A DNA stretch of 64,000 nt from Magnetococcales bacterium (lineage in GTDB: Bacteria; Pseudomonadota; Magnetococcia; Magnetococcales; JADFWU01). A model generated the notes under the pieces. That model did not search any database. It saw nothing but the letters and a program-made list of their open reading frames with translations, and was not told the DNA's origin. Position numbers and translations under genes: made by a program. Numbering within the stretch: the first letter of the stretch is position 1; each line of letters begins with the position of its first letter. Positions 31,700 to 50,579 of this stretch are shown here, piece by piece. The stretch covers positions 1,521 through 65,520 of the forward strand of contig JADFWU010000015.1 of the NCBI GenBank assembly GCA_015234045.1. Direction: 5' to 3'.

Positions 31700-31847
31700 A
31701 GAAGCATGACTTCAAAATACTAAACGTTCATTAATGCGCCAAAATGAACCGATTCAACAATAAAAATAGTTGTCAATAATATATTTTTAGTTTTTTCAAC
31801 TTTATACAATATAAAATATACAAACCAATATCCTATGGAGTTGCTTT

Positions 31848-32492: not shown

Positions 32493-32508
32493 TCCCTAAA
32501 GCTGGGTT

Positions 32509-32538
32509 GCAGAAAGGGGGTATAGGGCTCCCTTTCTG
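32509..32538. terminator. hairpin between convergent genes (possible terminator)
   Basis: CAGAAAGGG-11 nt-CCCTTTCTG, a 9-bp stem with no T-run. Confidence 0.3.
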
Positions 32539-32596
32539 TGCTGTGCGGACCAATTCATATCCTGCGCAACGGGAATAATTAATTTTTCCACGGCCC

Positions 32597-33241: not shown

Positions 33242-33560
33242 AATGATAGAATTCCAAGTAAATTTACTGCACGAACAGTTAGTTAGATAATGCCTTTCCC
33301 AAGCTGTACTAACAGATAATGCATTCTAACATAGTGTGGCGTGTATCAAGAAGTGTGCTGTAGTTGTGTACGTTAATGATAATTATTTGCAGTACTGTCT
33401 GTTCATGTGCTCGATAAATGATAAACTGAATTATAAAAAACAGACACATTTTCCAAAAAATAGGGTAACATTGCCCATTTATCAGTTTTGGGTAGTGTAT
33501 TTGAAATCGTTTTCTACGTGTTGTATTTATTGTGGAAAATGTGACAGGGAGTCCGTTGTG

Positions 33561-34706
33561 ATGAATGTTCTGTATCGAACAATAAAACGTTTTGTTTTCA
33601 TGGTGCTGATTGTGTTTTTTGCATCAACTGTGACGGTGCATGCTCAAAGTGTGGTTGCTGTGGGCGAAGGTGCAACAAAACAGGCGGCCATCAATGATGC
33701 GATTCGTGCCGCCGTAGAAAAAGCGTTGGGTGCCTACGTTCAAGCAGACTCAAAAGTGAGTAACGGCAATCTGGAATATGACCGCATTATCTCTTCAAGC
33801 AGTGGATACGTGCGCGATTATACCGTCCTCAAAGAGGGACATGATCCCATTGAGGAAGCCTACAAGGTTAAACTCCAAGCTGAAGTTGATGATGTTAAAT
33901 TGAAAAGCGCTCTGGATGCGTTTCTCAACGATACGCGATTCCAAAAGACTTTCCAAAAGACCAGCTTTGATTCCCGCAAGGTGGTGGTTTTGTACAAGCG
34001 CCGCAGTACTGAAGATCTGGAGTATGACTCCAAGGGTGTTCAGACGGTTATGGATTTAATACAAGATAAATTGGTTGGTTACGGTTTCCGGGTGTTTCTT
34101 CAGGACCAGTTAAGCCGAATCAAGGATCTGGCTTCAGATGGAATGATCAATGAAAATGATGCGATACGGGTCGCGCAACAAGAAGATGGTGATGCTGTGG
34201 TTTTGGTCAGCATTGATGCCGGCAAACGCAGAACATCGGATGGTTATTATCTGATTCACTCTACATTGGGTATGAAGGCCTTTGATGTGACCACTGGTGA
34301 GTTGTTTGCCAATGTTCAGGATCGTGGCAAAACAGTCAGTCGTGGTGGTGAATACGGCATCTCTGATGGCGTGTCCCGTGTGGCGATTAAAATTGGTAGT
34401 GCTGCGGCTGAAAATCTGGTCAAAAAGATAGTTGAGCGTTTCTCGGGTGCCCGTTCGAAATTCATTACGCTGATTGTCCGGGATGTTGCATTGGATGTGC
34501 AGGATCGAATTGAAGACTTGATTATGGATCTCGGTTGGGAATACCGCATTGGTCGGCAAGCTGGCAGCTATCTGGAGTTAGAGGTGTTCAGTGAGTCTGA
34601 TCCAACATCCATCAGAAGTGAGTTTCGCCGTCAAGCGAGGCGGGCAGGGATAGCGCTTCAATCTGTTGGTATGAAGGGCAGTCGGATTATTTTCTCCAGT
34701 CCATAA
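33561..34706 (+). CDS. secreted FlgT-N-like / TolB-N-like multidomain protein (cluster gene A, 381 aa)
   Basis: The Sec signal is MNVLYRTIKRFVFMVLIVFFASTVTVHA|QS. The N-domain VVAVGEGATKQAAINDAIRAAVEKALGAYVQADSKVSNG resembles the FlgT N-domain/LPP20 fold. It is a paralog of gene F (40814-41938). Its size is close to Vibrio FlgT. The track start at 33336 is rejected as an AT-rich leader. Confidence 0.6.
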   Translation: MNVLYRTIKRFVFMVLIVFFASTVTVHAQSVVAVGEGATKQAAINDAIRAAVEKALGAYVQADSKVSNGNLEYDRIISSSSGYVRDYTVLKEGHDPIEEAYKVKLQAEVDDVKLKSALDAFLNDTRFQKTFQKTSFDSRKVVVLYKRRSTEDLEYDSKGVQTVMDLIQDKLVGYGFRVFLQDQLSRIKDLASDGMINENDAIRVAQQEDGDAVVLVSIDAGKRRTSDGYYLIHSTLGMKAFDVTTGELFANVQDRGKTVSRGGEYGISDGVSRVAIKIGSAAAENLVKKIVERFSGARSKFITLIVRDVALDVQDRIEDLIMDLGWEYRIGRQAGSYLELEVFSESDPTSIRSEFRRQARRAGIALQSVGMKGSRIIFSSP

Positions 34707-34766
34707 ATTGGCTGTTTATTCTCAGCACGTGAATGTGGTATTGCACGGGTATCTAAGGGGTTTCGT

Positions 34767-35777
34767 ATGACCAGTTGGAAATGCATTGAGAAGAAATTGC
34801 GGACACCTGCACTGATTATTGCGGTTGGATTTTTGCTGTCTGCCTGTGCCACAGGTGGTTCAACAGTTGCTCCGAAAGGTGTGGCAGTAAAAGTGTTGCG
34901 GCCTGTCACCATGGTCCAGGGGAATACCTGCAATGCGGTGAATCTAATCTGGATTGATCAGGAACGGGTGATTTCATCAGAAGGAATCTTTCTGAGTGGG
35001 GTTGAACGGTCTCAACTGGCTGAGAAAGCGCGTTCTGTTGTCAATGAGACTGGGTTCCTTCAATCCACCAGCCTGCCACCAGAGTCGGATTCTGTGCGTT
35101 ACCACACCATGCTGATCAAACTGATCAATATGGATATTGATCAAGCTCAAACCGCTGCACATGCCACAAAGACCGGGCGCATTGAATTATCCATCGCCCT
35201 GAAGGAAGGGGGCGAGTTGTCTGGCTTTACCGAATGCTATTCAACCGATTTCTCCAAAGAAATCGTTCGGCGTGTACCAAAATACAAACACAGTCAGTTG
35301 CCCAGTGACTTCGATATGAAAAAAATGCTCATCGCTCGAGCTATTCGAAGTGTGTTACGCAAGTTTACACCTGCGCGGGTATCTACTTTTCGCCCTGTCT
35401 ATGGTGGTCTTGGAGAGGCTGCCAAGGTTTCTGATTTATTGAATGGTGGAAATTGTAAACTTGCTTTTAAGGTTGCGCTTACTGCTTTGAAGGACAATGA
35501 AACAGATCAATCCATGCTCTTCAACGCCGGGGTGGCGGCTGAATGTTTGGCGGGAAAGAGTAGAAAACAACTCGAAAAAATTAAAGCGCTAAAGAAATCA
35601 CTGGAATTTTACGAAAAGGTCTTGATGGCTTCTCCATCCGATAAAGAGGCAAATCGAGCAGCGAAAGAGGTGGCGCAGACTCTGGAATTGTATGGTGATG
35701 CCGCAAGTAATCAGAGTGACTCTCGTATTAAACTTCAAAAACTGGAGCAGGAGTACTCAACACCATCTGGTTTCTGA
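34767..35777 (+). CDS. outer-membrane-type lipoprotein, unknown family, TPR-like C-terminus (cluster gene B)
   Basis: The lipobox is FLLSAC|ATGG. The AAGGGG RBS is present. The C-terminus is helical (LFNAGVAAECLAG...SLEFYEKVLMASPSDKEA). Confidence 0.6.
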   Translation: MTSWKCIEKKLRTPALIIAVGFLLSACATGGSTVAPKGVAVKVLRPVTMVQGNTCNAVNLIWIDQERVISSEGIFLSGVERSQLAEKARSVVNETGFLQSTSLPPESDSVRYHTMLIKLINMDIDQAQTAAHATKTGRIELSIALKEGGELSGFTECYSTDFSKEIVRRVPKYKHSQLPSDFDMKKMLIARAIRSVLRKFTPARVSTFRPVYGGLGEAAKVSDLLNGGNCKLAFKVALTALKDNETDQSMLFNAGVAAECLAGKSRKQLEKIKALKKSLEFYEKVLMASPSDKEANRAAKEVAQTLELYGDAASNQSDSRIKLQKLEQEYSTPSGF

Positions 35778-35787
35778 TATCTTAGGC

Positions 35788-35884
35788 GTTACGCAATTGC
35801 CGGTTGAAACAGACAGTAAAGTGTCTACCCATCATTCCCGCTTCCTCGGGAATGATGGGTGCAAAATGCATTCAACTGCGTAAC
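35788..35884. repeat. R2 repeat, copy b (97 bp), in the B/C spacer
   Basis: GTTACGCAATTG (35788-99) pairs with CAACTGCGTAAC (35873-84). An internal perfect 14-bp hairpin runs ACCCATCATTCCCG-cttcct-CGGGAATGATGGGT (35827-35860). Confidence 0.6.
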
Positions 35885-35982
35885 TTTCATATCTATCGAA
35901 AATGAGTAATAAACGCGGCATGCCGACACATTTTACAGGTGCCGCTTTGTTTGAAAAATATTTTGTTTAGGAGATCAGTATA

Positions 35983-37359
35983 GTGAAAAAAATCAAATAT
36001 TTAGCAATGGCTGGTGCCTGTGCTTTGATATTGAGTGGTTGTGGTGGTGCTGCGATGCAGATGGCTGGTGGTCTGGCCAGTGGCATGATGGGTGGTGGCG
36101 CACAGAGCAACTCTCTCAAAGGTGTGGAGATGGATTTCACCTTTGTGGATCAGGTAACCTCCATGCTAAGGGTCAACGAATTAATGTTGACTCGAATGGA
36201 AATATCCAGTGATGCCGAGTGGCCACTGGCGGTGATGCGTCCAGAGGGAGAGGGCGCTGATATCGCAGCATATGATAGTTGGTTGGAACAGAAGCTGAAA
36301 GAAGATTTCAGCTACTTTGAATATTACGGTGAGCTTTCAGGTATGGAGATGCTTGGGGCCATTGGTTCTATGGGACAGATGTTTAATACCGCTAAAGATC
36401 GAATTCTGACTGAAGCGATTAAATCTGTCGGTATGGATCTTGAGCATCAACGTCAGGTGTTGGACTATCGTCCTGATGGCTGTGTCAGCCCAGCTTATGG
36501 TGGTGCTCAGAGTGCGAGTGAATCTGTCTGTGCTGCGGTGGAAAAAGAGAATAACCGGACAAAACTGTGTGGTTTTTTCAACGCGCCTTTGGAAGATCAG
36601 CTATTTGAATTTTTGTCCGGTGATCATTCAGCGGCAGACTGGTTGGATACACCGGTGGATGATCTCTGTTTGAGGCCGGTTACCGCATTGTCTGGTTCAA
36701 TTCATAAGAATGTTAATGCCGCCTTTATCAGTCTGCTTCCTGAGCATCTCTCAGAGGAGATTCAAGCTGTTGAGTCCAATATCACTGAGATGACTGAACA
36801 GAAATCAGATTTGGAAGCGCAGATCAAACAGGCAGAAGCCAGCGAAGAGAATAGCATCAGTGCAGATGAAATTACCGCTCTGAAACAACAGGTCACAGAT
36901 CTGGAAGAGCAAATTAAAGCAGGACAAGCCACCTATGCCAAGCTGTTTGAAGAGGCTATGGGTGCTGTTGAAGGAACGGACGCTAATGTCGTTTTGGCCC
37001 GTCAGGTCCGTCGGGTGATTGGTGCGGTTGATGGCAACCTGTCAATTGCTTCTACGGGTGCTGTCGCAGTAATGGCCAAAATGGTCATTGATATGAAGGA
37101 TCTTGCTAGAGCAGGTCTCGATCCCTTGGGTACGGCGGCTGTTATGGCAGGTGAAGCGGCCGGTAAGAATGAAGCGCTTACTGCTGAGGAATTACAACAG
37201 AAAATGCAGGAGCGTGTTGAACGTTTGATCAAACGTTCAATCTCCTTCTTGCCCAATGCGTTGGGTATTCTGAATAGGATTATGGTGCAACGGGATCTTG
37301 TTTCAAGTAAAGTGGAATACCTTGATAAGTTGATCAAGATTGGCGAAAAGCAGGGATAA
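35983..37359 (+). CDS. lipoprotein, unknown family, Gly/Met/Ala-rich linker plus coiled coil (cluster gene C)
   Basis: The GTG start follows AGGAG. The lipobox is LILSGC|GGAAMQMAGGLASGMMGGG. Heptad-like stretches run EIQAVESNITEMTEQKSDLEAQIKQAE...QQVTDLEEQIK. Confidence 0.6.
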   Translation: MKKIKYLAMAGACALILSGCGGAAMQMAGGLASGMMGGGAQSNSLKGVEMDFTFVDQVTSMLRVNELMLTRMEISSDAEWPLAVMRPEGEGADIAAYDSWLEQKLKEDFSYFEYYGELSGMEMLGAIGSMGQMFNTAKDRILTEAIKSVGMDLEHQRQVLDYRPDGCVSPAYGGAQSASESVCAAVEKENNRTKLCGFFNAPLEDQLFEFLSGDHSAADWLDTPVDDLCLRPVTALSGSIHKNVNAAFISLLPEHLSEEIQAVESNITEMTEQKSDLEAQIKQAEASEENSISADEITALKQQVTDLEEQIKAGQATYAKLFEEAMGAVEGTDANVVLARQVRRVIGAVDGNLSIASTGAVAVMAKMVIDMKDLARAGLDPLGTAAVMAGEAAGKNEALTAEELQQKMQERVERLIKRSISFLPNALGILNRIMVQRDLVSSKVEYLDKLIKIGEKQG

Positions 37360-37380
37360 TAGCTTCGGCTTGATGTAGGC

Positions 37381-37441
37381 ATTACGCAGTTGAATGACGG
37401 GTACACGCTTTGATATCTGTTTCAAACGGCAATTGCGTAAC
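37381..37441. repeat. R2 repeat, copy c (61 bp), in the C/D spacer, inverted relative to copy b
   Basis: ATTACGCAGTTGAATG... ...TTTCAAACGGCAATTGCGTAAC. The revcomp of its right end, GTTACGCAATTGCCGTTTGAAACAGA, matches the left end of copy b (GTTACGCAATTGCCGGTTGAAACAGA). Confidence 0.6.
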
Positions 37442-37469
37442 TCCTATGATGATTGATATCGGAGAGTGA

Positions 37470-38705
37470 ATGATGGATAGACGGTTTAAGTCTGCAAAAA
37501 CCTGGTTAAGCAGTATAACAGCCGTGCTGGTCATGGGGTTGTTTCTGAGTGGCTGTCAAGAGAAGCCTAAAGCAGCTGTTTCCGAAATGGATAATCCCTG
37601 GCATCACTATGCTCAGGGTATGGAAGCACTGGATGAAGGCCGTGTGGATCGCGCCTCTGCCAAGTTCAGTCGAGCCATAGCACTTTCCGAGGATTTTTCA
37701 CCAGCCCTGGCTGGCCAAAGTCTGATCATGGCCCTTAAGGCCGCTGATCAGGAAGATGCTGGTCACCGCCGTGTTGATTGGGAAAAAGCGGAAGATCTGC
37801 TTGATGCGGCCAGAAGTGCAGCGGATACCGATGCCGATACTTTTATCTACCAAACCACTGCAATTCGTGTTCTGACGGCAGCCCAACCTGATCGTTGGAT
37901 TGACAAAGCCCGTATTCACCATGTCAGTGCGCTGGAAGTGGATGATCTAAAAGATACTGATTTGCCTTACTATCAGTACAAAGCCGCTGCCGATTACTTC
38001 ATGGCCGAGGCGTGGTTTAAAGCGGACTTCCGTAAAGCACCTCAGTTGTTGACCAAAGTACTGGGAGCGCGCGGAGATGGTAAATGGCAAGGGCCAGCCG
38101 ACAAATTGTATCAACGGGTTCAGAAAATCATCCGGGCTTCTGCTGGCCATATGGTGAGCGGTAAAGCGTTGCAGATTGCCATCAAAGATTCAGTCACACG
38201 TGGGGATGCGGCTGCTCTGTTGGTTGATGAGTTGAAACTCGATAAACTTCTGGCCGGTCGGATTCGGGTTGCTTCAGTTGAGGCTAATCGTAAAGCTGAA
38301 TACACACCGGCTGATGTGTTGAATCATCCGTTCCGTGATGAAATCAGCACCATGATGAAGTGGCGTGTTCGTGGACTTGAGCCTAACTATGATGAGTCCA
38401 CACGTGCTTGGCTGTTTAAACCACAGGACTCCGTTCCTCGGAAAGATCTGGCTTTGGCCTTAGAGGATGTGCTGATTGGTCTAACAAAGGATCAGGGCAT
38501 TGCAACAGCTCATATCGGAGCAGAACGTTCGCCCTATCCTGATGTTTCTCCTAATCTGCCTTGGTTTAATGCGTGTATGACCTCGGTCACACGGGGATTG
38601 ATGCAGTTGGGATTGTCCGGTGAGTTTCGTCCTGATGAGCCGGTCAGTGGTGCTGATCTTCTATTGGCTGTTTTTAAACTGCGCAGCGTAATGAACATTC
38701 ACTGA
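37470..38705 (+). CDS. lipoprotein with N-terminal TPR-like region and three C-terminal SLH-like repeats (cluster gene D)
   Basis: The lipobox is LFLSGC|QEKP. The SLH-like units are ..DSVTRGDAAALLVDEL, DVLNHPFRDEISTMMKWRVRGL....LFKPQDSVPRKDLALALEDVL and YPDVSPNLPWFNACMTSVTRGLM...GEFRPDEPVSGADLLLAVFKL. Confidence 0.6.
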   Translation: MMDRRFKSAKTWLSSITAVLVMGLFLSGCQEKPKAAVSEMDNPWHHYAQGMEALDEGRVDRASAKFSRAIALSEDFSPALAGQSLIMALKAADQEDAGHRRVDWEKAEDLLDAARSAADTDADTFIYQTTAIRVLTAAQPDRWIDKARIHHVSALEVDDLKDTDLPYYQYKAAADYFMAEAWFKADFRKAPQLLTKVLGARGDGKWQGPADKLYQRVQKIIRASAGHMVSGKALQIAIKDSVTRGDAAALLVDELKLDKLLAGRIRVASVEANRKAEYTPADVLNHPFRDEISTMMKWRVRGLEPNYDESTRAWLFKPQDSVPRKDLALALEDVLIGLTKDQGIATAHIGAERSPYPDVSPNLPWFNACMTSVTRGLMQLGLSGEFRPDEPVSGADLLLAVFKLRSVMNIH

Positions 38706-38805
38706 GATTGGGGCTGAGTGATGCATCGGTTTTGTATCTATTGATGGCGTGCTCAAAGATAGATGGATTGCAAGCATACTTTGAAAAAATGGAACTGAGG
38801 GGGAT

Positions 38806-40809
38806 ATGGTGAAGCCAGACCAAATGAATCATAAAAAAGGCATGTGGTTGAGTGGATTGCTCATGCTGATGGCCTTGGTGTTTGCTGCCTGTGCGCCTGT
38901 GGAAGAGTTTGCCAAACGTGCGGATCAGATGGAAGCGCGTGGCCAATATTCATCAGCAGTCCGGGAGTTGCAAAAAGGGTTGAAAGAAGCGCCTGGCAAT
39001 CCGCTACTCACCAAGTCCATGCAGCGTATTAAAACCAACTGGGCTAATCACACATTGGGTGAAGCGCGTTCTGCTTCCCGAGATATGGACCAATCCCTTG
39101 CTCGGCGTCTTAAAGCAGGTCTGACACTCGCCAAACAGGCAAAAAATATTGCTGATACAGCGGCAATCTCCTCTTTCATCACCAAGATGGAAGCGGAGCT
39201 AAAATCAATCAGCGATCGACAGAGAAAGTGTATTGAAGCGGGCAATGAAGCGCTGAAAAATGAGAGCGTCATTGATGCCGCACGTACTACGTTGCGCCGC
39301 TGTATTGAGGAGGATCCAGACAATAGTGAGGTGCAGGACCTTTCTGCAAAGGTTAACCGCCGTTGGGGTGACAAGGTCTATATGGAGGCCGATGAAGCCC
39401 TGAAAAAAGGTCAGGAAGAGCTGGCTTTGATGCTGATTGATCGTCTATTGAAAGTGGATGCCAAATATCCTGGTGCTGTTTTGCTCCGCAAACAGGCAGA
39501 TGGTGCCGCAACTGCCCGGCGTCGCCTTGTTAAGGTGCGTTCTTTCATGGAAGAAGGGGCTTCACTGCGTGCTCTGGAGGCCTATCGTAGCATTGATCCC
39601 AACAATGTCCGGGTCAATGAAAGTTTGGCGGTGGAGATGGATAGCATCGTTGAACAGTTGGGTAATACGCTTCTGCGTCAAGCACGTGATTTGATGGCGA
39701 CGCGCCGTTTGGGTAAAGCCATGTTGCGTTTAGAAGGAGCTGTGGATGTTTTGCCCAGTGTGCGGTTTACACCAGAGGCTGAGTCAATCATTCGGAAACT
39801 GGAAAATCGTGCATTGTCGTTTCAAGATGAAGGGCTACTGGGTAATGCCTATTATGCTTTTCTGAAGTTGAAAAAAATTGCTCAGTGGGGTGGACGCAAT
39901 CGGGATGTGATGGATGAACTTCATCATCAACTGCGTGAACGCAACATCGTGACTATCAGTTTGGTTGATTTCGGTACGCCATCCAATGAACCAGATGCAG
40001 GCACCTATTTCACTTCTCAGCTGACCAATATGCTTTTTGAGCGTCGTGAATCTGATCTGAAAATCGTTGAACGTGAGCGGATCAAGGATGTCATCAAGGA
40101 ACTTCAGCTGGACACCAGTGGTATGACCAGTATGGAGAGTGCCAAGAAGATTGGTCATATCCAAGGTATTGACTACTTCATCTTTGGCAATGTGGTGGAG
40201 TATCAGGTAGAAACCGTTGATCAACCAACACAGCGAACCGTAAAAGTGGAAGTGGGACGCAGAAAAATTCCCAACCCTGCATTCCAGACCTTTATTCTGA
40301 TGAATCCCAATACCTGGCAGGAGATGATGCGTCAGGGTGTGGCACCTCAAAAGACCATTGAAGAGGCGCAGCATCAGCTCATTCAGTTCCAGGAGGGCAC
40401 GATTGCCAAGCGTACTACCGGCAATCTCTATATGCGTATCATTGAGGTCGAACGGGGTGATATTTTTACCACTCGTGCGTTTAAGAAAAAGCACGAAGAG
40501 TCGGACCACTATTCCGATGGGGTTGGATTGGCGAATATCCAGGCTGATCCCAAGGAAATTGCCAGTGATAAAGCGATGCTGGGTAAAATTTCCAAAGAGA
40601 TTCTGGATGAAGCATCCTCCTTTGTGCTCGACCTGTTTGCCGACCGCGAAACGTCCAAATCAACCACAGCGGCTAATCTGGTAAAGCAGGGTGATATGCT
40701 TTCTGCGGTTGAGAAGTGGGTGGATGCATGGATGATTGCTGAAACAAAGAAAAAAGAGGTTAAACCATTTGTTCAGGGTGCAACTGACGCAGTCCTGGAA
40801 GCGTGGTAG
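38806..40809 (+). CDS. lipoprotein: long TPR/helical N-region fused to a CsgG/LpoB/FlgO-like C-domain (cluster gene E, 667 aa)
   Basis: The lipobox is LVFAAC|APVEE. The C-domain is IVTISLVDFGTPSNEPDAGTYFTSQLTNMLFERRESDLKIVERERIKDVIKELQLDTSGMTSMESAKKIGHIQGIDYFIFGNVVEY. It follows the CsgG-family pattern (vaV..F.n......g..l...L...L.....f.vvER..l..vl.E..l..sG........ig...GadylifG.v). Confidence 0.62.
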   Translation: MVKPDQMNHKKGMWLSGLLMLMALVFAACAPVEEFAKRADQMEARGQYSSAVRELQKGLKEAPGNPLLTKSMQRIKTNWANHTLGEARSASRDMDQSLARRLKAGLTLAKQAKNIADTAAISSFITKMEAELKSISDRQRKCIEAGNEALKNESVIDAARTTLRRCIEEDPDNSEVQDLSAKVNRRWGDKVYMEADEALKKGQEELALMLIDRLLKVDAKYPGAVLLRKQADGAATARRRLVKVRSFMEEGASLRALEAYRSIDPNNVRVNESLAVEMDSIVEQLGNTLLRQARDLMATRRLGKAMLRLEGAVDVLPSVRFTPEAESIIRKLENRALSFQDEGLLGNAYYAFLKLKKIAQWGGRNRDVMDELHHQLRERNIVTISLVDFGTPSNEPDAGTYFTSQLTNMLFERRESDLKIVERERIKDVIKELQLDTSGMTSMESAKKIGHIQGIDYFIFGNVVEYQVETVDQPTQRTVKVEVGRRKIPNPAFQTFILMNPNTWQEMMRQGVAPQKTIEEAQHQLIQFQEGTIAKRTTGNLYMRIIEVERGDIFTTRAFKKKHEESDHYSDGVGLANIQADPKEIASDKAMLGKISKEILDEASSFVLDLFADRETSKSTTAANLVKQGDMLSAVEKWVDAWMIAETKKKEVKPFVQGATDAVLEAW

Positions 40810-40813
40810 CGTT

Positions 40814-41938: not shown

Positions 41939-41993
41939 GGCGAATTCGGGATTTATAAATAACCGCCAAGTGACACAAACAAAGGGTGGATTG

Positions 41994-42869: not shown

Positions 42870-42878
42870 TTGACCTGA

Positions 42879-42941
42879 GTTACGTGCAATAAGCACGTGC
42901 CCTTTTCTGTGCCTTGCTGAGAGACCAATATTCTGCGTGAC
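42879..42941. repeat. R2 repeat, degenerate copy d (63 bp), in the G/H spacer
   Basis: GTTACGtGCAAT (42879-90) pairs with CTGCGTgAC (42933-41). The ends are diverged from the R2 consensus, and there is an internal ACGTGC..GCACGT hairpin. Confidence 0.35.
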
Positions 42942-42998
42942 TGGGACAATCAATTTTTTCGAGGTCCTGAAAAGGCGCTCTATTATGGTGGATCTGTA

Positions 42999-44774
42999 AT
43001 GATCAGAAGGCAGTCAAATATAGGGATACCCGGCTATTGTCCGGGTATCCTTTTTTGGCATTGTGTCACTGTTTATCGGTGTACAGCCTTAATTTTTTTT
43101 ATTTCTGCATTTATTGCTGCATCACTGCTTGCTCCATCACTGGCTCAGGCGGACTCTGATGTAACTGACTCTTATGCGTTCCAATCCCTTGAAAGACCAG
43201 TAAGTGCTTTACGGCGGCGTGAACCGCTTATTTCTCAGTTTATCAATATCAAGAGTGAAAAGTTATTGATGCGTGGCAAAGTGGTTATCCGCTCGCTGCG
43301 TCCTTTGTATGTTGAAGTGGTACTGAGTCAAACAAGTGGTCAACCCTGGGATATTTTGCAAAAAATATCGTCTTGGGTAACTTTGCCTACCAAGGACTTA
43401 TTGTGGCTTCAATCAATTCCTGAAATTACAGCGCGAAATGTTCATCTGGTGTTTTCCAATGTACATGGGCGTTTTTATATGGAGTGGCTCTCTGCGCAGC
43501 GGATTGATATATCTCAAGGGTGGTTGGATCAGGTCCGTGCCAGGGTTTTGGATGGATTGGGGCGCTGGAGTCTTCAGTGGCAGAAAGGTTGGTTGTCGTC
43601 TCTACCAGTGGGTGAAGGATTCTGGAAAGGGGTGCGTGATCTCTCCAGTGAGTGGGTTACACTTTCGGGTGAGGGGGGTGATCAACTTCAGATTCAAGCG
43701 CAAAAATTGGATATGGCCGGCATGACAGTGAATGGACTGATGGGACGGCTTCAGCGATTGGACCATATTAACCGTCAGCGGCATTGGCAACTCTATTCCA
43801 GCACTGTTGATTTTATTCTGGATAAGTTGCATTCCCATTTGAGAAGTACGCCTGCAATTTGGCAGTATATGCAAGTTCATTTGGCTCAACAGGGTGTTGA
43901 TGATCAGATGATTTTTTCAGGTCAGGCCAGGGTGGATAAAGTGCGCCTCTCCTGTCAGATGTCCGACCAGGATCAACCGTTGTGGTCTACGCTTTCCTTG
44001 AATGGTCATGCGGCGTTGACGCATGTGAACCTGAAGTCAACGCCGGATGGTGTGCGATTACTTGAAATACCGGCTCTGACCTTTGATCTTACTCGGCAAC
44101 AGGATGGACAGTGGCAGCTTGCTAATTCTCAAGGCGTTTTTGAGCATCAGGGTGGTCGTTTAAAGGTCAAGTCCTTGGATCTTACATGGCCGAAGATCTC
44201 CTCGGTAAGTCGCGGACAAGTTGAAGCGGTAGCTTGGCCTGTTGGTCAATGGCGGCTAAATGGCAGTTTGGGGGGAGATCGTGCCAGCGGAATTGATTTT
44301 GAAGGTCGATTCACTCTTAATAGTCTGCCCGGTCAACTCAGATTAACCGGTCGGGTAACGGCGCAGGAGGGTATCGCGGAAGATGCTGCTCTGGTGCGGC
44401 TCTATCAATTGGACTTGCCACTCTGGAGTGTGCAGCAGCAAAATGTTCATACCATGCTGCATCTATCCAGAGATATCAATACGCCGGTACAAATGGAGAT
44501 TGATCAGCTTCAGGTAGAAGGTCAAACCGTATTGAACCAAATCCTAATGCGTGTAATCAACAAGGATACTTCTTCTCTGCCTGAGAGCAGTCTCATTGCC
44601 TTTTGGCAGGGGGGGGATAAGTGCGGTCAAGCTTGGCAAGGTGGCGCACGTTTTTCGTCGGATATGGCATCCTGGTGGATGATTGATGATAAGGATGAGG
44701 GTATGCACAACGGATTGTCACAGTTGGTGTCTGGTTGTTCACAACAGGTCATACTGGGAGAGTCTATCCAGTGA
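42999..44774 (+). CDS. large exported/membrane-anchored protein, unknown family (cluster gene H, 591 aa)
   Basis: The hydrophobic N-segment is ALIFFISAFIAASLLAPSLAQA|DSD. The sequence is W/Q/L-rich and looks beta-rich. A possible AsmA/TamB-like character is speculation only. The start is uncertain (see the terminator-like hairpin at 43024-43056). Confidence 0.5.
   Translation: MIRRQSNIGIPGYCPGILFWHCVTVYRCTALIFFISAFIAASLLAPSLAQADSDVTDSYAFQSLERPVSALRRREPLISQFINIKSEKLLMRGKVVIRSLRPLYVEVVLSQTSGQPWDILQKISSWVTLPTKDLLWLQSIPEITARNVHLVFSNVHGRFYMEWLSAQRIDISQGWLDQVRARVLDGLGRWSLQWQKGWLSSLPVGEGFWKGVRDLSSEWVTLSGEGGDQLQIQAQKLDMAGMTVNGLMGRLQRLDHINRQRHWQLYSSTVDFILDKLHSHLRSTPAIWQYMQVHLAQQGVDDQMIFSGQARVDKVRLSCQMSDQDQPLWSTLSLNGHAALTHVNLKSTPDGVRLLEIPALTFDLTRQQDGQWQLANSQGVFEHQGGRLKVKSLDLTWPKISSVSRGQVEAVAWPVGQWRLNGSLGGDRASGIDFEGRFTLNSLPGQLRLTGRVTAQEGIAEDAALVRLYQLDLPLWSVQQQNVHTMLHLSRDINTPVQMEIDQLQVEGQTVLNQILMRVINKDTSSLPESSLIAFWQGGDKCGQAWQGGARFSSDMASWWMIDDKDEGMHNGLSQLVSGCSQQVILGESIQ
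43024..43056 (+). terminator. canonical intrinsic-terminator-like hairpin inside the annotated 5' end of gene H
   Basis: GGATACCCGG-ctattgt-CCGGGTATCC, a perfect 10-bp stem, is followed by TTTTTT (43051-43056). Confidence 0.5.
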
Positions 44775-46792
44775 GAGTCAGAAGGAGTAGGCCGCTTTAT
44801 TCTCTCTCTGTTGTGATCTCTATGCTGATGATCATGGTGACCCCGCTTGCTTCGTTTGGTCAGACAGTATCACTGGTCAAGCATAATCTTAAGAGTGATG
44901 CTGTTTATTTTGAGGATGTCGGACAGTATCTCGAAGCGCTTGTCGCTTATGATCATATGTACCGATTCAATGAAGTGCCTGAAAAAAAAGTCCGAGCGTT
45001 GATGGAACGTGCCCGAATATTGGCTGTTTATCTGGATGCTCCTGAGGCCTCGCGCAAGGTGTATCAGAAGATTCGCCGGGAATTTCCTTCTCGCGCTGGT
45101 CAAGCTTGGTACGCTGAAGGACGGTTATTGGTCGAAATGGAGCGCTGGAATGACGCGCAGACACTGTTGAGTGAATATCGCAAGCAGTTGCCAAATGATC
45201 TCTATGCGTTTCATGCTCAATATTTAATGACTGTTGCTGAACAACGGCGAAGCAAAGCCAATAATACACCGGTAACTGGCGTTGTATCGAACAACGCACC
45301 ATCCTCAGAACAGAAGCCGGAAAAACAGTCTGTAGATGCATCTAAAAAAAAGACCACTGACGAACCGATTTCTCAACAAACCAAGACCCCGATAGAAAAC
45401 AGCAAAGAGGCAGTCAAACAGCAAGAGACCATTACGGAAAAAGCTGTAATTATCCCACCGGATATCGATTCGGTGTCGGACGGTGATGCTCTTGTAGAAA
45501 GCGGTTTACCGGATATTGATTCAGTACCGGATGATGTGCCATTACCCATTCCGTTGCCCAAAAGGCGTTTACCACATGTTCAGCCAAACAGTGATGTGAT
45601 TGTTCCATCCGTTCCTACGGATGCAGCCGCCAAAGAAGGTGCTGGTGGTCCAGCAGTGAAGGACCAGAAAGCTTTTTACTATCAAATGTCCGAGGTTGAA
45701 GAGCCTACTGTACGCATACTCCTGCTTCGAAAATCACCACTGCTTCAGTTAGTAGCAAAAGGGCTGCAATTTTATCAAAATGGTGAATTAGTTTGGCAAG
45801 GCACCCAGGCGGTTGTCAAAGTCATTCATGGTCGGCTGGTTTTGACTGGAGGTTGGCAGTATCCCAATGAACCAGCGCCAGCTTGGGCAGGCCCTATTCA
45901 GGTAAAAGCTGAGGAACCGATCCGTGTGGTCAGTGGTTCCGGTAATAGAAAAAGTGTGCGTGGTACAGTGTGGTTGGCGGTCCGTGATGAGCGGATACGA
46001 GTGATCAATCATGTGGGTATCGAATCCTATCTACGCGGTGTCATGCCGGTATCCTCTCAAGGCAGCTGGCCTGCTGAGGCATTGAAAGCACAAGCCATAG
46101 CGGCTCGGACATTTGCTTACTTTCAAATTCGTCACCGTATCCACCTGGAATATGATATGGTGGATCAGCATGGAGAACAGGGATATGGCGGTGTCGGACG
46201 TGAAGTTGCGCCCGCTGATGCGGCTGTAGCGGAAACACGCGGGCGTATTCTTGTGTTGACTCAAGGTGTGGGTGCTGGCATGCCCATCTACGCGAAATCG
46301 ACCACCAATAATGGTGGTCGCAGTGCAGACTCTGGTGACCTATTCACCTTTTCGTTGCCCTATCTGGTTTTTCAGAACGATCCCTGGAGCGAAAAAGGTA
46401 AAATGGTTTCATGGCAACGCAGATATGCCCTGGCGGATGTCGGACAATATCTGGTCAATAGAGGTGTTGTCGGAGCTGAAGAATTGGTTGGATTCAGAAG
46501 TGATCGTGTCAGCCGTTCAGGGAGAATGTTGACTGCCACTGCCGTGATGAAAGGTAGAAAAACAACCGTGCCGACTCAGTTTTTCCTGATGGGAGATTTG
46601 AAATTACCCAGCATGTTGACCACTGTGCAAGATAAGGGTGAATATGTTGTGTTCCAAGGTTATGGTTTTGGTCATGGGCTTGGTTACTCGAAGTGGGGCG
46701 GTGTTGTGATGGCCAAGGTACTTAAAAGCGTTTTTGGTCGTATCCTGGCATTTTATTATCCTGGCACATCGTTGGCTCAAGCATGGCACTAG
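44771..46792 (+). CDS. secreted TPR + Pro/acidic linker + SpoIID/LytB-domain protein (cluster gene I)
   Basis: The GTG at 44771 overlaps the H stop (GTGA); an alternative ATG lies at 44735. The signal is ...VVISMLMIMVTPLASFG|Q. The SpoIID signature is IESYLRGVMPVSSQGSWPAEALKAQAIAARTFAY. A tandem PDIDSV(S/P)D repeat lies in the linker. Confidence 0.68.
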   Translation: MRVRRSRPLYSLSVVISMLMIMVTPLASFGQTVSLVKHNLKSDAVYFEDVGQYLEALVAYDHMYRFNEVPEKKVRALMERARILAVYLDAPEASRKVYQKIRREFPSRAGQAWYAEGRLLVEMERWNDAQTLLSEYRKQLPNDLYAFHAQYLMTVAEQRRSKANNTPVTGVVSNNAPSSEQKPEKQSVDASKKKTTDEPISQQTKTPIENSKEAVKQQETITEKAVIIPPDIDSVSDGDALVESGLPDIDSVPDDVPLPIPLPKRRLPHVQPNSDVIVPSVPTDAAAKEGAGGPAVKDQKAFYYQMSEVEEPTVRILLLRKSPLLQLVAKGLQFYQNGELVWQGTQAVVKVIHGRLVLTGGWQYPNEPAPAWAGPIQVKAEEPIRVVSGSGNRKSVRGTVWLAVRDERIRVINHVGIESYLRGVMPVSSQGSWPAEALKAQAIAARTFAYFQIRHRIHLEYDMVDQHGEQGYGGVGREVAPADAAVAETRGRILVLTQGVGAGMPIYAKSTTNNGGRSADSGDLFTFSLPYLVFQNDPWSEKGKMVSWQRRYALADVGQYLVNRGVVGAEELVGFRSDRVSRSGRMLTATAVMKGRKTTVPTQFFLMGDLKLPSMLTTVQDKGEYVVFQGYGFGHGLGYSKWGGVVMAKVLKSVFGRILAFYYPGTSLAQAWH

Positions 46793-46877
46793 CCGTGAGT
46801 TACTGATTGATTTTGTTTTATATGTTTACTCGACCGTTTCCACAGGGGAGCAGACGGTTATTAGGGAGGAATTGCCC

Positions 46878-48779
46878 ATGAAGAAGTCTATTTTTTTTAG
46901 AAAGCCACAGATTTGGCTATTGGGTGGTCTGGTTGTGACAGCCCTTTTAACCGGCTGTGTTGCAGCGACCAAGACCGCCGTCGTCGGTGGTCCGGCTTTT
47001 ACCACCAATATTGGTGAGACCGAATCGTCTGTAGATCGGGCGGGTCTACCCGCAACAGTAGCCTTTCTGCCCTTTGTCAATGGTACCGATGCTGATCGGG
47101 CTTTTGAGATTGTACGTCGTACGATGTCCAGTCATTTTTCAGGCAAGAACTATCGGATGATGCATATTCGGGAAGTGGATCGCCGTCTGAGAGCTGCCAA
47201 GTTGACAGATCCTGCTGAAATTGCCAAGAGACCAGCACATGAAATTGCCGGTATTCTGGGTGTCGATGGTTTGATGTATGGCACAATCACCCATTATGAC
47301 AAGCTGTTTTTGCTCACCTATGCACAAGTGGCTGTGGGTGTGGAAATGCGTTTGGTAAATCTGAAAGGTAAAGAAATCTGGAATGGCAATCAGGTAAGCC
47401 GGAAGCATGAGGGCGGTGTGGCTACCACACCGGTGGGCTTGATTCTCAATGCTGCTTTTGCGGCTTGGCACATCAAGGATGATGCCAATCTGTTCCGTGC
47501 GGCTGATGAGTTGGGCCGTGAACTGATGGGTACTATTCCAGAACCAAAAGCGATTGCCGGTGCTAAGCGTCCGCGTATCATGCAGGTTGTTCATGATGGA
47601 ATGGGCAAAATCCTCAAGTTTGGTGATTCTCTTTCTATAGCAGTTGAGGCTGAGCCGGGTCTTAAAGCTGCTTATGCTCGTGTGGATGGTCTGGGTTTGG
47701 TTGATCTGGTAGAAACGGAAAAGGGCTTCTACACAGCTAAAGTAGATATCAAGCCCAAGGATAATGTAAAGGCAGCCGCTGTTGTGGCTGTGGTTGAAAA
47801 TGAAGAAGGCACTATGGTTGAACGTGTTTCACCGCTTGGCGTGGTGAATGTAGACAATATTCCACCAGAGCCAGTGACCGAGTTGAAAGTAGAAGGTAGA
47901 GATGATGGCTTGGTAGTCAGCTGGACATCGTCAAAATCGGAAGATCTCAAAGAGTATAAGATCGGTATCTCCGATGTGCCTCAAGGACCATTTGCTGAGT
48001 TGGCTAAAATCGGTGAAAGTCGCTATACCCATAAATCACCCAATTTCAAAGTTGTTCATGTTGAAGTGATTCCCGTAGATCAGGCAGGTAATGTGGGACA
48101 AGCGGTTACTGTCGCTGGTCGTGCTGTACCTGATCCACGATTTGATACGGCTGCGTTGTTGCCGCGTATCGTGCCTGCTCGTATTACCGCTACTTCAGTT
48201 ATGACTCGGGAAAACAGTCCCTATACCATCAATGCGCCTGTTGAATTGGCCAATACTGGTGTATTGCTGATCGAGCCAGGTGTTGCCATCCATTTGGAGC
48301 GTAAAACCGGTATCACAGTGCAAGGTGAGTTGCAGATATTTGGTACGCAGACCACACCGGTTACTGTGGCTGGTGTGAATAACGGCTCATATACCACCTT
48401 TTTGCGTCTGGACAGTACATTGCCGGTATCTATTCGTGGTTTGAGAAGTTCCGGTGGTGATCTGCCTATTGTCATTACCGCTGGTGCGCCGATGATTCTG
48501 GACAGTCAGCTACTCAACAACACATACAGTGCGTTGGAAATCGGTGGCAGTAGTCGTCCGGTGATCCGTGGTTGCGAGATTCGTGGTAGCAACGCGGCTG
48601 GTGTAGTTGTGAAAGAGCAGGCTCAGCCGCAGTTTACCGGTAATAACTTTGCTGAAAATAGCCCGTTTCATATCCAAAGCAGTTCACCCTATAAGCTGAA
48701 TGCCCGTGACAACAGTTGGACACCAAAAGCAACCAACATCACTGTGCTTGGCAATGTGGACTTCAAACAATCCAAGTAA
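46878..48779 (+). CDS. lipoprotein: DUF799/GNA1162-like N-domain + Ig/FN3-like domains + right-handed beta-helix (cluster gene J)
   Basis: The GGGAGGA RBS is present. The lipobox is ALLTGC|VAAT. VAFLPFVNGTD...EIAGILGVDGLMYGTITHYDKLFLLTYAQVAVGVEMRLVNLKGKEIWNG is collinear with the GNA1162 family. An FN3-like stretch runs PPEPVTELKVEGRDDGLVVSWTSSKSEDLKEYKI. PbH1-like repeats run ...IRGCEIRGSNAAGVVVKEQAQPQFTGNNF. Confidence 0.65.
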   Translation: MKKSIFFRKPQIWLLGGLVVTALLTGCVAATKTAVVGGPAFTTNIGETESSVDRAGLPATVAFLPFVNGTDADRAFEIVRRTMSSHFSGKNYRMMHIREVDRRLRAAKLTDPAEIAKRPAHEIAGILGVDGLMYGTITHYDKLFLLTYAQVAVGVEMRLVNLKGKEIWNGNQVSRKHEGGVATTPVGLILNAAFAAWHIKDDANLFRAADELGRELMGTIPEPKAIAGAKRPRIMQVVHDGMGKILKFGDSLSIAVEAEPGLKAAYARVDGLGLVDLVETEKGFYTAKVDIKPKDNVKAAAVVAVVENEEGTMVERVSPLGVVNVDNIPPEPVTELKVEGRDDGLVVSWTSSKSEDLKEYKIGISDVPQGPFAELAKIGESRYTHKSPNFKVVHVEVIPVDQAGNVGQAVTVAGRAVPDPRFDTAALLPRIVPARITATSVMTRENSPYTINAPVELANTGVLLIEPGVAIHLERKTGITVQGELQIFGTQTTPVTVAGVNNGSYTTFLRLDSTLPVSIRGLRSSGGDLPIVITAGAPMILDSQLLNNTYSALEIGGSSRPVIRGCEIRGSNAAGVVVKEQAQPQFTGNNFAENSPFHIQSSSPYKLNARDNSWTPKATNITVLGNVDFKQSK

Positions 48780-48820
48780 ACAGGCGTGCTTTTCACGGTT
48801 AAGTTTAGAGGGAGACGGTC

Positions 48821-49840
48821 ATGAGTGACCATACGGGATTAATAAAGAAAATTCTATCTGTCAGCACTCTGGTACTGATGACGGCTCTGCCGGTAACCGG
48901 TTGGAGTCAGGGACCGGGCGAAGTGGTGGAGTGGAGTGGTTCAGCGGGTGCAGTAAACTGGACACGTGGCCGTGTGATGGCTGAAGGTAACGGCATGGGC
49001 AAGCGCAAAGGCCCGTCTCGGCTTGTGGCTGCTCAGGCGTGTCGTGCTGCGGTTGTGGATGCACAGCGTAATTTGTTGGAGACGGTCAAAGGTGTTCGTG
49101 TCGAGGGTGAAACTGTTGTCGAAAATATGATGCTCACCAGCGATGTGATTAAGTCATCAGTCAGCGGTGTGGTGCGTGGTGCGGTGGTTAAAAATCGGGA
49201 AGTGTTCCCTGATGAAGGGGCCTGTACCGTGACCATGGAAATGCCGATGGAAGGCTCTTTTGCTTCTGGAATTTTTCAGAACATGCCCGATTCGCCTCAA
49301 GCCAATATGCGACCTGGAATATCGGACTGGAAACAGTGGGTAAGCTATGGACTGGATTGGTTGATTCGCCCAGCCCATGCCGCATCATCGGTTGGTGCGC
49401 CGTGGCAGAGCCAGATGAATCAGCTTATGGAGCGCTTGGAACGGTTGGAAAAAGTTGTACAAGCCCAGGCAGCAGGTAATCAGTCCAAACAGAAACGCAG
49501 TGGCAGTCCTACCGGATTGGTGATTGATGCACGTGGGACAAACTTTATTCCCAGCTTGTCGCCTAAAGTCCGCCAATTACGTGCTGGTATTCTCTACCCG
49601 ACCCCAAGAAAACGCGAACAACAGCGTCAGGGTGAACTGGTTTCTCTGTTTATGAAAGACTTGGTTCTAGCACAGAATCATCCACGAGTTGGTGATCGGC
49701 CTTTGGTACTCAAAGGACTCAAGACTTGGGGCAAGTATCGCACTGAAATTGTCTTGGGAACTGACTCCTCAAAAGAGTTGACTGCACTGATTCAAAAAAA
49801 TTTCCTTGCTGAAGCCGGTGTGATTATCGTTCTGGATTGA
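48821..49840 (+). CDS. secreted LPP20/FlgP-like protein (cluster gene K, paralog of G)
   Basis: The signal is ...LVLMTALPVTGWS|Q. RLVAAQACRAAVVDAQRNLLETVKGVRVEGETVVENMMLTSDVIKSSVSGVVRGA is present. The C-domain GLVIDARGTNFIPSL is collinear with G. Confidence 0.62.
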   Translation: MSDHTGLIKKILSVSTLVLMTALPVTGWSQGPGEVVEWSGSAGAVNWTRGRVMAEGNGMGKRKGPSRLVAAQACRAAVVDAQRNLLETVKGVRVEGETVVENMMLTSDVIKSSVSGVVRGAVVKNREVFPDEGACTVTMEMPMEGSFASGIFQNMPDSPQANMRPGISDWKQWVSYGLDWLIRPAHAASSVGAPWQSQMNQLMERLERLEKVVQAQAAGNQSKQKRSGSPTGLVIDARGTNFIPSLSPKVRQLRAGILYPTPRKREQQRQGELVSLFMKDLVLAQNHPRVGDRPLVLKGLKTWGKYRTEIVLGTDSSKELTALIQKNFLAEAGVIIVLD

Positions 49841-50579
49841 CTCTGTTCTGTTGCGCTTTGAAGTGTAATGGTGTTGTTAAATTATAACGATCGGCCAGTT
49901 TGATTGCCCGCCTGGAATAGGTACGGGCTGTATCAGACTGGCCTTTTTTTTTGGCTTCTTTGGAGAGTGTAATATAGCGATCAACAGTGTGTTCCAGTAT
50001 CTGTTTAATCCGAGTCCGTAGTTGTGGATGATCGGGTGCATAGTTGCGGACTTGTTTAAGGTAATAGAGCACATTATGTTGGCTAGGGCGGGAAAGCCGA
50101 TCATTGGCCAGGGCATCTTCCGCTTTGGCGAGAAGCGTATTGACTATCGTTATCACATCCTGAGATTTGTCAATCAGTTCTCCACGCGCTTTATGTTCTG
50201 GTTCCCCTTTTTCCTGATGGCTCTGACCCGAGTAATTGGCCTGTTGATGTTCTGCTTCAATCACAGAGCGCTGAGCTTTTTTGACTTGGTTTCGGGCGTA
50301 TTCAAAAACCTTTCTGGCACGGGCATAGTTGGCTTGTTCCTGATCAATGGGAACCGAAGGATCAAGTAGTGTCAGGGATTGTTTTTGTTTCAGTAACGCT
50401 GTGGCTTCGTTGAGAGTCTGTTTATGGATGGCAAGTTCTTTTTCTGCGGCGGCAAGTGCATTACGAGCCAGTTGCATGGTGAGTTGAGCGTTATCCGATG
50501 CTATGGTGACTGTTGGGATCAATAAAAGAAATCCATGAAGAAGTGCCAGCAGCATCAAGGATGGTGTGATCAGTCTCAT
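49824..50579 (-). CDS. secreted coiled-coil/helical-repeat protein, unknown family (cluster gene L, convergent)
   Basis: The ATG at 50579 follows AAGGAG. The signal is MRLITPSLMLLALLHGFLLLIPTVTIA|SD. A TPR-like motif DRLSRPSQHNVLYYLKQVRNYAPDHPQL is present. Its 3' end overlaps gene K by 17 nt. Confidence 0.55.
   Translation of the reverse strand: MRLITPSLMLLALLHGFLLLIPTVTIASDNAQLTMQLARNALAAAEKELAIHKQTLNEATALLKQKQSLTLLDPSVPIDQEQANYARARKVFEYARNQVKKAQRSVIEAEHQQANYSGQSHQEKGEPEHKARGELIDKSQDVITIVNTLLAKAEDALANDRLSRPSQHNVLYYLKQVRNYAPDHPQLRTRIKQILEHTVDRYITLSKEAKKKGQSDTARTYSRRAIKLADRYNLTTPLHFKAQQNRVNPER

Follow-up and report, generated by a model that had tools for sequence, protein, structure and literature searches.

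Layout and export signals of the cluster

The DNA considered here is a window of 64 kb (NCBI GenBank assembly GCA_015234045.1, contig JADFWU010000015.1, positions 1,521 to 65,520 of the forward strand) from a 69.6-kb contig of a Magnetococcales metagenome-assembled genome (MAG) with locus tags HQL54_065xx; all coordinates below are those of the window. It contains eleven co-directional genes, A to K (33561-49840), and a convergent gene L, which an earlier reading of the sequence alone, referred to below as the original prediction, described as a cluster of exported proteins and lipoproteins only. E is HQL54_06525 and F is HQL54_06530. The genes are as follows, with lengths in amino acids (aa) where given.

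A, 33561-34706, plus strand: exported, non-lipidated paralogue of F; FlgT-like/LipL46-like, three domains
B, 34767-35777, plus strand: lipoprotein (LSAC), no Pfam family
C, 35983-37359, plus strand: orphan lipoprotein (LSGC), coiled-coil-like in its centre and with a linker rich in Gly and Met
D, 37470-38705, plus strand: TPR and SLH lipoprotein (LSGC), the best-conserved component
E, 38806-40809, plus strand: lipoprotein (FAAC) with a helical-repeat (TPR) arm of ~330 aa and a C-terminal CsgG/LpoB-type domain
F, 40814-41938, plus strand: exported FlgT-like/LipL46-like protein, anchor of the conserved module
G, 41994-42869, plus strand: exported; Tp0624-D2-like domain behind a FlgP-like SHS2 domain
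H, 42999-44774, plus strand: orphan exported protein of 591 aa, translationally coupled to I
I, 44771-46792, plus strand: exported TPR protein with a SpoIID-type domain, predicted peptidoglycan lytic enzyme
J, 46878-48779, plus strand: lipoprotein (LTGC) in which a GNA1162/DUF799-like domain is joined by a right-handed beta-helix at the C-terminus
K, 48821-49840, plus strand: paralogue of G (FlgP-like and Tp0624-D2-like) with an inserted low-complexity linker
L, 49824-50579, minus strand: convergent orphan, exported helical protein with a signal peptide and marginal Pfam matches; membership of the system is putative

Checked base by base, the predicted gene layout held, including the E/F gap and the H/I overlap: the stop codon of E (TAG, 40807-40809) and the ATG of F at 40814 leave 4 nt between them; H and I share GTGA, with the TGA of H at 44772-44774 and the GTG of I at 44771; the remaining spacers measure 41-205 nt; and the 3' ends of the convergent pair K and L overlap by 17 nt. 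A terminator-like hairpin with a T-run lies directly 3' of G, at 42881-42899, which hints that A-G and H-K are separate transcription units, H being coupled to I at translation. A promoter scan gave a count not above that in shuffled sequence, and Rfam and tRNA scans of the window found no RNA genes. Recent transfer of the cluster was considered and receives no support from composition, the guanine-cytosine (GC) content of the cluster (0.46-0.49) being like that of its flanks.

Export was judged by hydropathy together with a motif heuristic, in which a hydrophobic segment is a 19-mer with a mean Kyte-Doolittle value above 1.6. By this measure all 12 products have a single N-terminal hydrophobic 19-mer and no further membrane-spanning stretch, I conforming when its start is taken as the GTG at 44771. 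Lipoboxes are found in B (LSAC followed by A), C (LSGC, G), D (LSGC, Q), E (FAAC, A), and J (LTGC, V), none with Asp at +2, while A, F, G, H, I, K, and L carry cleavable-looking signals without Cys, so that the claim of export or lipidation for every product was borne out in 12 of 12 cases. If 20-35% of the proteins of the genome are assumed to be exported, twelve exported products in succession would arise by chance with p ~4e-9 to 3e-6. Within 33.5-50.6 kb, no Pfam or NCBIfam match was found to ATPase, polytopic membrane protein, or regulator families, nor to flagellar, pilin, curlin, or polysaccharide-synthesis families, in agreement with the predicted lack of motor, substrate, and energiser genes.

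A conserved module and its component families

Judged by their sequences, A-K represent a conserved envelope module in a lineage-specific form that is larger and in part duplicated. The core of this module consists of a FlgT/LipL46-like protein (A, F), a protein joining a FlgP-type SHS2 domain to a Tp0624-D2 domain (G, K), and a CsgG-family lipoprotein (E; B perhaps), and it is often accompanied by D, a TPR-SLH lipoprotein, and J, a GNA1162-like one. An alignment of the F family was run against GTDB with a single genome for each species, which yielded 78 loci with relatives of ~25% identity; the open reading frames (ORFs) of these loci were our own greedy calls and were searched with the twelve window proteins, MAG taxonomy being taken as it stands in the records. 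Locus counts are minima, as many contigs end inside loci. Among the 77 loci with an F-family gene, G/K genes are present in at least 49, CsgG-like genes in at least 53, D in at least 27, J in at least 23, and an exported FecR-domain protein in at least 21; where F is flanked by three or more genes on either side (43 loci), G/K genes were found in 31 and CsgG-like genes in 33. Nearly all module genes (265 of 267) lie on the strand of F. The loci belong to Nitrospinota, WOR-3, Zixibacteria, Calditrichota, Desulfobacterota, Planctomycetota, and non-flagellated Myxococcota, and the recurrence of the core families in so many phyla means that the core set is conserved across them. The gene orders are given below.

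Nitrospinota: F (long)-J-CsgG-K-D-E-like (TPR and CsgG-type, 720-743 aa)-F-FecR
Calditrichia: K-D-F-CsgG-FecR
Desulfobacterota: F-J-CsgG-D-G, or CsgG-F-G-CHASE2 cyclase
WOR-3: CsgG-K-F
Phycisphaerae: CsgG / TPR-CsgG-LPP20-like-133 aa-F-F
Myxococcota: K-like-F-(PEGA)-FecR, in Pyxidicoccus trucidator and a Myxococcales MAG

The D-E-F sub-order of the window is that of Nitrospinota, whose loci also have two F paralogues, J, and K, and D adjoins a G/K gene in 23 of the 27 loci that contain it. The exact 12-gene arrangement was found in the window only, and searches of 5.8 billion proteins brought up no close relative of E or F among the matches listed. The cluster is no one-off: it is an expanded copy of a module present in at least 77 loci, its core co-directional in dozens of them and the complete A-K arrangement confined to the window. 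The 78 related loci contain no counterpart of C, H, I, or L; I is an addition found in the window cluster alone.

Flagellar and pilus families are absent from the 25 commonest Pfam families among 147 neighbour proteins, no flagellar or pilus family is listed in seven Pfam-labelled neighbourhoods, and no flagellar, pilus, ATPase, or substrate gene recurs beside the related loci. The commonest neighbour Pfam families are CHASE2 with cyclase and acyl-CoA dehydrogenase, with four proteins each, followed by PilZ, M23 peptidases, and others with three. Myxobacteria are, to our knowledge, non-flagellated. The module as a whole is non-flagellar. The label "flagellar-disk-type" attached to the cluster by the original prediction can therefore be kept for the homology of its parts and has to be dropped for a flagellar association, given the module in non-flagellated Myxococcota and the ferredoxin-like C domain of F.

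A and F can be aligned with each other and with the F family over their full length and are paralogues. In Pfam, FlgT_N matches both below its cutoff of 28.8 bits, A with E 2e-3 and 18.9 bits and F with 27.1 bits; PF16548 is precomputed on F and several of its relatives, and a Nitrospinota homologue reaches 38.4 bits for FlgT_N. Both proteins contain an SHS2-type FlgT_N domain, which in the model of F runs as a helix, then a hairpin, then a sheet. The score of A against the hidden Markov model (HMM) of its family, A3, is 247.7 bits and is inflated because A is itself a row of A3. The NCBIfam model for LipL46, an outer-membrane lipoprotein of Leptospira, matches F over nearly its full length (E 1e-11, 44.2 bits) and A with E 2.4e-7. 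F lies far under the equivalog cutoff of that model (44.2 vs 400 bits) and lacks a lipobox; it is a homologue of LipL46 and not its equivalent. In addition, A matches the NCBIfam LipL21 model weakly (E 0.006); LipL21 is an outer-membrane lipoprotein tightly bound to peptidoglycan (PMC5764436). An AlphaFold2 (AF2) model of F built from a 68-sequence alignment is confident, with a predicted local distance difference test (pLDDT) value of 84.8, and the top Foldseek matches to it are FlgT, 8z5n_0 and 3w1e (E 1e-10, ~390 aligned columns over the full length), so that FlgT is its best match in the PDB. The middle domain has structural matches to GNA1162, PelC, CT253, LptE, and CsgG, and the predicted composition of A and F, a FlgT_N-like followed by a TolB_N-like domain, is upheld by Pfam, AF2, and Foldseek, with the second domain best called TolB_N/PelC-like. 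In the model, residues 291-373 of F fold as beta-alpha-beta-beta-alpha-beta, which is ferredoxin-like and not the beta-roll of FlgT_C; for this domain Foldseek leads to ACT-domain enzymes and the sequence profile to chance-level ubiquitin and HMA-type matches, and Pfam FlgT_C has no match in F. Poly-ubiquitin matches of the F-family profile in the PDB were dismissed as summed weak repeats.

The family profile of G and K (A2) matches C. jejuni FlgP (9hmf_C) with E 1e-15, gapless over residues 70-160 and including the hairpin, and it also matches Vibrio FlgP (8z5n_2, 9yds). The profile thus contains both the SHS2 domain and the beta-hairpin insert that is correlated with ring formation. Its positions 63-285 align with residues 40-263 of D1-D2 in T. 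pallidum Tp0624 (5jir, E 3e-15), and this tandem unit covers nearly the whole mature G/K family. Pfam LPP20, with a cutoff of 25.9 bits, scores below threshold in G (14.8 bits) and K (19.2 bits) and matches 19 of the 33 family members at E<=0.01, from which it follows that the homology holds at family level only; at that level the predicted LPP20/FlgP-like nature of G and K is confirmed. K and G share the N domain and are 57% identical over the SHS2 hairpin region, and K aligns over its full length in A2. The best homologues in related loci reach E 9e-46 for G and 8e-33 for K. No OmpA domain was matched in G or K, which end after D2. Among their relatives, the K-like proteins encoded at several loci of WOR-3 and of unclassified MAGs (L012, L016, L017, L025, L052, L058) have a lipobox-like Cys and long Pro-rich linkers; K-like proteins of the other phyla, like G and K of the window, are non-lipidated.

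E scores 32.6 bits against the Pfam CsgG threshold of 20.8, covering only positions 33-105 of the 210 in the profile, together with TPR_14 (8.5e-8) and LpoB (6.8e-3). A TPR arm with a CsgG/LpoB-type domain had been predicted for E and was recovered, the latter as this partial profile match; the FlgO-like character also proposed found no support in Pfam. At the site of hairpin 1 in the CsgG-type domain there is an insert of ~75 aa of different composition. The architecture of E is that of the 720-743-aa proteins of the Nitrospinota loci, which lack both of the amphipathic hairpin segments that build the 36-stranded barrel of CsgG, and its helical arm is modelled confidently by AF2 from the single sequence. 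Meanwhile, the short CsgG-like genes of related loci match Pfam CsgG at 3.7e-29 over positions 6-208 of 210 and keep both hairpin segments, and an alignment of E. coli CsgG with the profile of this family extends through the first transmembrane-hairpin region (2e-8). With E as the query, among the best 8000 candidates, E itself was alone among the matches listed, a search probably swamped by shared TPR words. Neither curlin nor CsgE nor CsgF is matched in the cluster by Pfam or NCBIfam. For B, the statement that it belongs to no family stands as far as Pfam goes and fails as to relatives, since its C-terminal third resembles the last helix and TPR of a 340-aa "CsgG+TPR" lipoprotein of Planctomycetota modules, weakly matched by BLASTP over ~119 aa (L075 6287-7303, E 3e-8; L083 5846-6862, E 5e-6). 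An hhalign alignment of B with the CsgG-like family was negative, which makes this relationship tentative.

SLH domains bind a pyruvylated secondary cell-wall polymer. In D, a single SLH repeat at 355-397 exceeds the Pfam threshold (26.3 vs 20.8 bits). SLH is found in all 23 aligned members of the D family (best 7.7e-26) and TPR in 21 of the 23, the family profile matches TPR structures, and homologues in Desulfobacterota MAG loci reach E 3e-108; a PDB search with the SLH region of D as a single sequence gave nothing useful. TPR and SLH had been predicted with three SLH repeats; the two domain types are as predicted, and three repeats appear from the alignment consensus only, one being over threshold in D itself. 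J exceeds the Pfam thresholds for GNA1162-like (45.9 vs 25.9 bits) and Beta_helix (28.3 vs 25.9 bits) and matches the GNA1162 crystal structure (PDB 4hrv) at 8.4e-6, in keeping with the predicted GNA1162/DUF799-like domain and beta-helix; an Ig/FN3 domain, predicted as well, has no Pfam support. In SpoIID, the Glu of the EALKAQ motif is the catalytic residue. The assignment of I to SpoIID proved correct in Pfam (1.1e-20, 74.4 bits) and in the PDB, where residues 398-668 of I align with residues 49-317 of SpoIID 4rwr (1.9e-15), a span that is the whole catalytic domain and in which EALKAQ..AARTF is kept.

C and H match no known family, as predicted. C has weak coiled-coil-type matches only in Pfam, NCBIfam, and the PDB, and H has no match in any of the three. 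An exhaustive HMMER search of 1.84 billion representatives with H returned H itself and four marginal matches, of which the largest, a repetitive Calx-beta protein of 2551 aa, was treated as spurious. A FecR domain hidden in H or I was looked for, with a negative result.

Several further genes stand near the related modules. A CHASE2 adenylate/guanylate cyclase of ~705 aa always follows CsgG-F-G in Desulfobacterota (seven loci: L001 4743-6668, and fam8 of L021, L027, L038, L056, L061, and L067). PilZ adjoins the module in a Nitrospinota locus (L002 11005-11643) and in Pyxidicoccus (L080 8712-9050), and in the Myxococcales MAG (L081) a Ser/Thr kinase then follows FecR. Within the Nitrospinota module, a HEPN-domain gene (E 2e-22; L002 1478-1879) lies between the long F-like gene and J. 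In Calditrichia (L043, L045, L049, L051, L074, L079), conserved genes that look by eye like ExbB/TolQ-type and ExbD-type (fam11, fam12) are located ~6-9 kb upstream, and unrelated-looking genes stand between these candidates and K-D-F-CsgG-FecR.

A proposed envelope scaffold and competing explanations

The cluster contains five lipoproteins, four SHS2 domains with the hairpin, four TolB_N/CsgG/PelC-type domains, one SLH domain, and one SpoIID-type domain. The reading favoured here, which could as easily fail as hold, is that A-K encode a Sec-exported, non-flagellar envelope scaffold of rings or plates that is free of an energy source. In such a scaffold the lipoproteins B, C, D, E, and J would reside in the outer membrane's inner leaflet and anchor the assembly; beneath them, the soluble SHS2 proteins A, F, G, and K would polymerise through the ring-forming beta-hairpin of the FlgP/FlgT type; and the TolB_N/PelC/CsgG-type domains of A, F, E, and J would oligomerise to rings. 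CsgG forms a 9-mer ring and PelC a 12-mer ring. The SLH domain of D would link the assembly to the wall, and the SpoIID-type protein I would open the peptidoglycan locally. The module could serve the cell as a structural platform, a pore collar, or an envelope sensor. It has been reported that FlgP, FlgO, and FlgT are lipid-anchored concentric rings requiring no energy input (bioRxiv 10.64898/2025.12.02.691832) and that the hairpin insert correlates with ring formation in the FlgP family (PMC12222027). The fusion of D1-D2 to an OmpA-like domain in treponemes (PMC5104382), taken together with the adjacency of D and G/K in 23 of 27 loci, links G/K to wall attachment.

A number of observations weigh against this reading. 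In sequence, A and F resemble FlgT in the N domain only, and the F model superposes on FlgT with a global template modelling (TM) score of ~0.3 and a root-mean-square deviation (rmsd) of 14-21 Å, which means that F and FlgT have the order of the N and middle domains in common but not their spatial arrangement. The CsgG-type domain of E is partial, and residues 380-667 have pLDDT <50 in the single-sequence AF2 model; the SLH motifs of D are degenerate, reading TRGD, PRKD, and SGAD for TRAE; G and K, with signal peptides and no Cys, lack the lipid anchor of FlgP; and the FecR-domain partner common in related loci is absent from the entire window. C, H, L, and most of B have no detectable relatives, which leaves a third of the cluster unexplained, and rings are expected here solely because the homologues form them.

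An alternative that we consider unlikely is a passive outer-membrane export or assembly platform, in which a CsgG/PelC-type pore ring with a FlgT/FlgP-like periplasmic collar would serve a client encoded elsewhere. Exopolysaccharide secretion is often under the control of PilZ/cyclase-type cyclic-nucleotide components, and PilZ and CHASE2-cyclase genes adjoin the module in several lineages. The full-profile match of the short CsgG-like genes in related loci (3.7e-29), the alignment of their profile with the first hairpin region of E. coli CsgG (2e-8), and the likeness of the F middle domain to PelC, a ring that funnels Pel polysaccharide to its pore, all point the same way. However, a short full-length CsgG gene is absent from the window, E matches CsgG at positions 33-105 only and its Nitrospinota counterparts are without both hairpins, and the neighbourhoods show no recurrent gene for a synthase, substrate, or chaperone.

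Less probable again is a sensor of the envelope state or of the surface, that is, a lipoprotein complex relaying a mechanical or chemical signal to signalling proteins of the inner membrane. Such a function would suit the exported FecR-domain protein in the module at no fewer than 21 loci, the CHASE2 cyclase behind CsgG-F-G in seven Desulfobacterota loci, PilZ beside the module in Nitrospinota and Pyxidicoccus, and the Ser/Thr kinase after FecR in the Myxococcales MAG; but genes for FecR, CHASE2, PilZ, or a kinase are lacking in the window cluster, and the signalling partners vary by lineage and are missing at many loci, so that they look like add-ons and not like core components.

We would give slightly less credence still to a flagellar accessory in this organism, a plate like the H-ring or basal disk for the sheathed multi-flagellar bundle of magnetotactic cocci. 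In magnetococci, 7 flagella and 24 fibrils form a hexagonal array within a sheath, and the basal parts of this bundle are incompletely assigned (PMC7175107); A, F, G, and K have homology to FlgT and FlgP, and the doubling of both gene types would suit a larger plate. Against this, the window has no flagellar gene, the family occurs in non-flagellated Myxococcota and no flagellar gene came to light in the surveyed neighbourhoods, and F lacks a domain of the FlgT_C type, which in Vibrio carries the T-ring. Moreover, word-based searches with E, F, and the F profile gave no other Magnetococcales protein among the best 8000 candidates, which argues that the module is not a conserved magnetococcal flagellar component. 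That the cluster is a chance run of unrelated exported proteins is very improbable: several spacers of 100-205 nt, the terminator-like hairpin after G, the lack of relatives of C, H, and L, and the weak partial match of B would fit it, but the families A/F, G/K, D, E, and J recur co-directionally at dozens of loci in different phyla and p for twelve exported products is below ~3e-6, so that it is already contradicted for the core genes and could stand for L, possibly also for C and H.

Known systems, wider meaning, and genomic surroundings

The scaffold of rings or plates proposed above is closest to the Vibrio H-ring and the Campylobacter basal disk, with which it would share SHS2 domains with the ring-forming hairpin (A, F, G, K), the FlgT-like order of N and middle domains, a TolB_N-type lipoprotein partner, exported parts, anchoring by lipoproteins, and the lack of an energy source of its own. 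It differs from them in that the module has no linkage to flagellar genes and has relatives among non-flagellated myxobacteria; F has a ferredoxin-like C domain where FlgT has the FlgT_C beta-roll; G and K are non-lipidated and have the additional Tp0624-D2 domain, unlike FlgP; and the cluster has no FlgO match, while SLH, GNA1162, and SpoIID partners occur only here. Tp0624 (PDB 5JIR) is similar in that its D1-D2 tandem is nearly the whole of mature G/K, but it ends in an OmpA-like domain, where the window has D (SLH), a separate neighbouring protein of wall-binding type; ~50 proteins of other bacteria consisting of D1-D2 only were noted by Parker et al. (PMC5104382). As for LipL46, the matches of F and A to the NCBIfam model stand against the missing lipobox of both and scores far under the equivalog cutoff. 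Like CsgG and GNA1162, E and J are lipoproteins, each over the respective Pfam threshold, and the middle domain of F has the fold of PelC, GNA1162, LptE, and CsgG, among which CsgG, PelC, and GNA1162 are oligomeric, ATP-free outer-membrane lipoproteins. Curli and Pel systems differ in their csgABEF and pel genes, none of which is present here, and E spans a third of the CsgG profile; J differs from GNA1162 by its additional beta-helix domain. Because the defining features of each fail, the assembly is not an H-ring, curli, Pel, or Tp0624 orthologue.

The original prediction knew of no described system with this composition, and no published description of the gene set was found in the literature searched, whose coverage excludes most subscription journals. 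The parts are members of known families, and the kind would be that of lipoprotein-anchored periplasmic ring assemblies, the gene set itself having no published study that we found. More speculatively, and with a greater chance of being wrong than right, the module might be an ancient machine of rings or plates in the outer envelope, phylogenetically widespread and non-flagellar, from which the H-ring and basal disk were recruited, or the reverse; if so, the Magnetococcales cluster, with its duplicated ring proteins, its own wall-cutting enzyme, and its orphans, would build an unusually elaborate version. Flagellar outer rings (FlgP, FlgT, FlgO) are textbook accessory structures added to the core machine. 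The placing of FlgP and FlgT homologues in a separate, conserved, non-flagellar gene set, non-flagellated bacteria included, makes the origin of these rings testable. It also provides a genomic context for two proteins without an established role, LipL46 of Leptospira and Tp0624 of the syphilis spirochete, and in Pyxidicoccus, a cultured bacterium, the module occurs in compact form (K-like, F-like, FecR).

The flanks of the cluster are housekeeping genes: lipA, lipB, degP/Q, TRAP dctP, lon, cobT, argS, and thrS. Elsewhere in the window there is no flagellar gene, and no FecR, short full-length CsgG, or additional module gene. Between TRAP dctP and gene A lies a stretch of low GC content (30300-33300, 0.397 vs ~0.47-0.50), which may be a mobile-element remnant at the 5' edge of the cluster. 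The ORFs recorded in it are as follows.

31125-31421, minus strand, and 31466-31699, plus strand: divergent pair of small HTH-looking ORFs
31848-32492: ORF of 214 aa, no Pfam or NCBIfam match
32597-33241, minus strand: ORF of 214 aa with a sulfotransferase-like motif, GYGRSGTHY, no Pfam or NCBIfam match

Further away, an ORF of 555 aa (17931-19598, minus strand) has no NCBIfam match and a marginal glycosyltransferase match in Pfam, and ~1.6 kb between lon and an aminopeptidase gene (53900-55500; GC 0.428) contain no ORF above 120 aa and no Rfam or tRNA match. At the 3' edge of the cluster, directly after L, a DUF4351-domain protein (E 6.4e-8) is encoded at 50717-51229.

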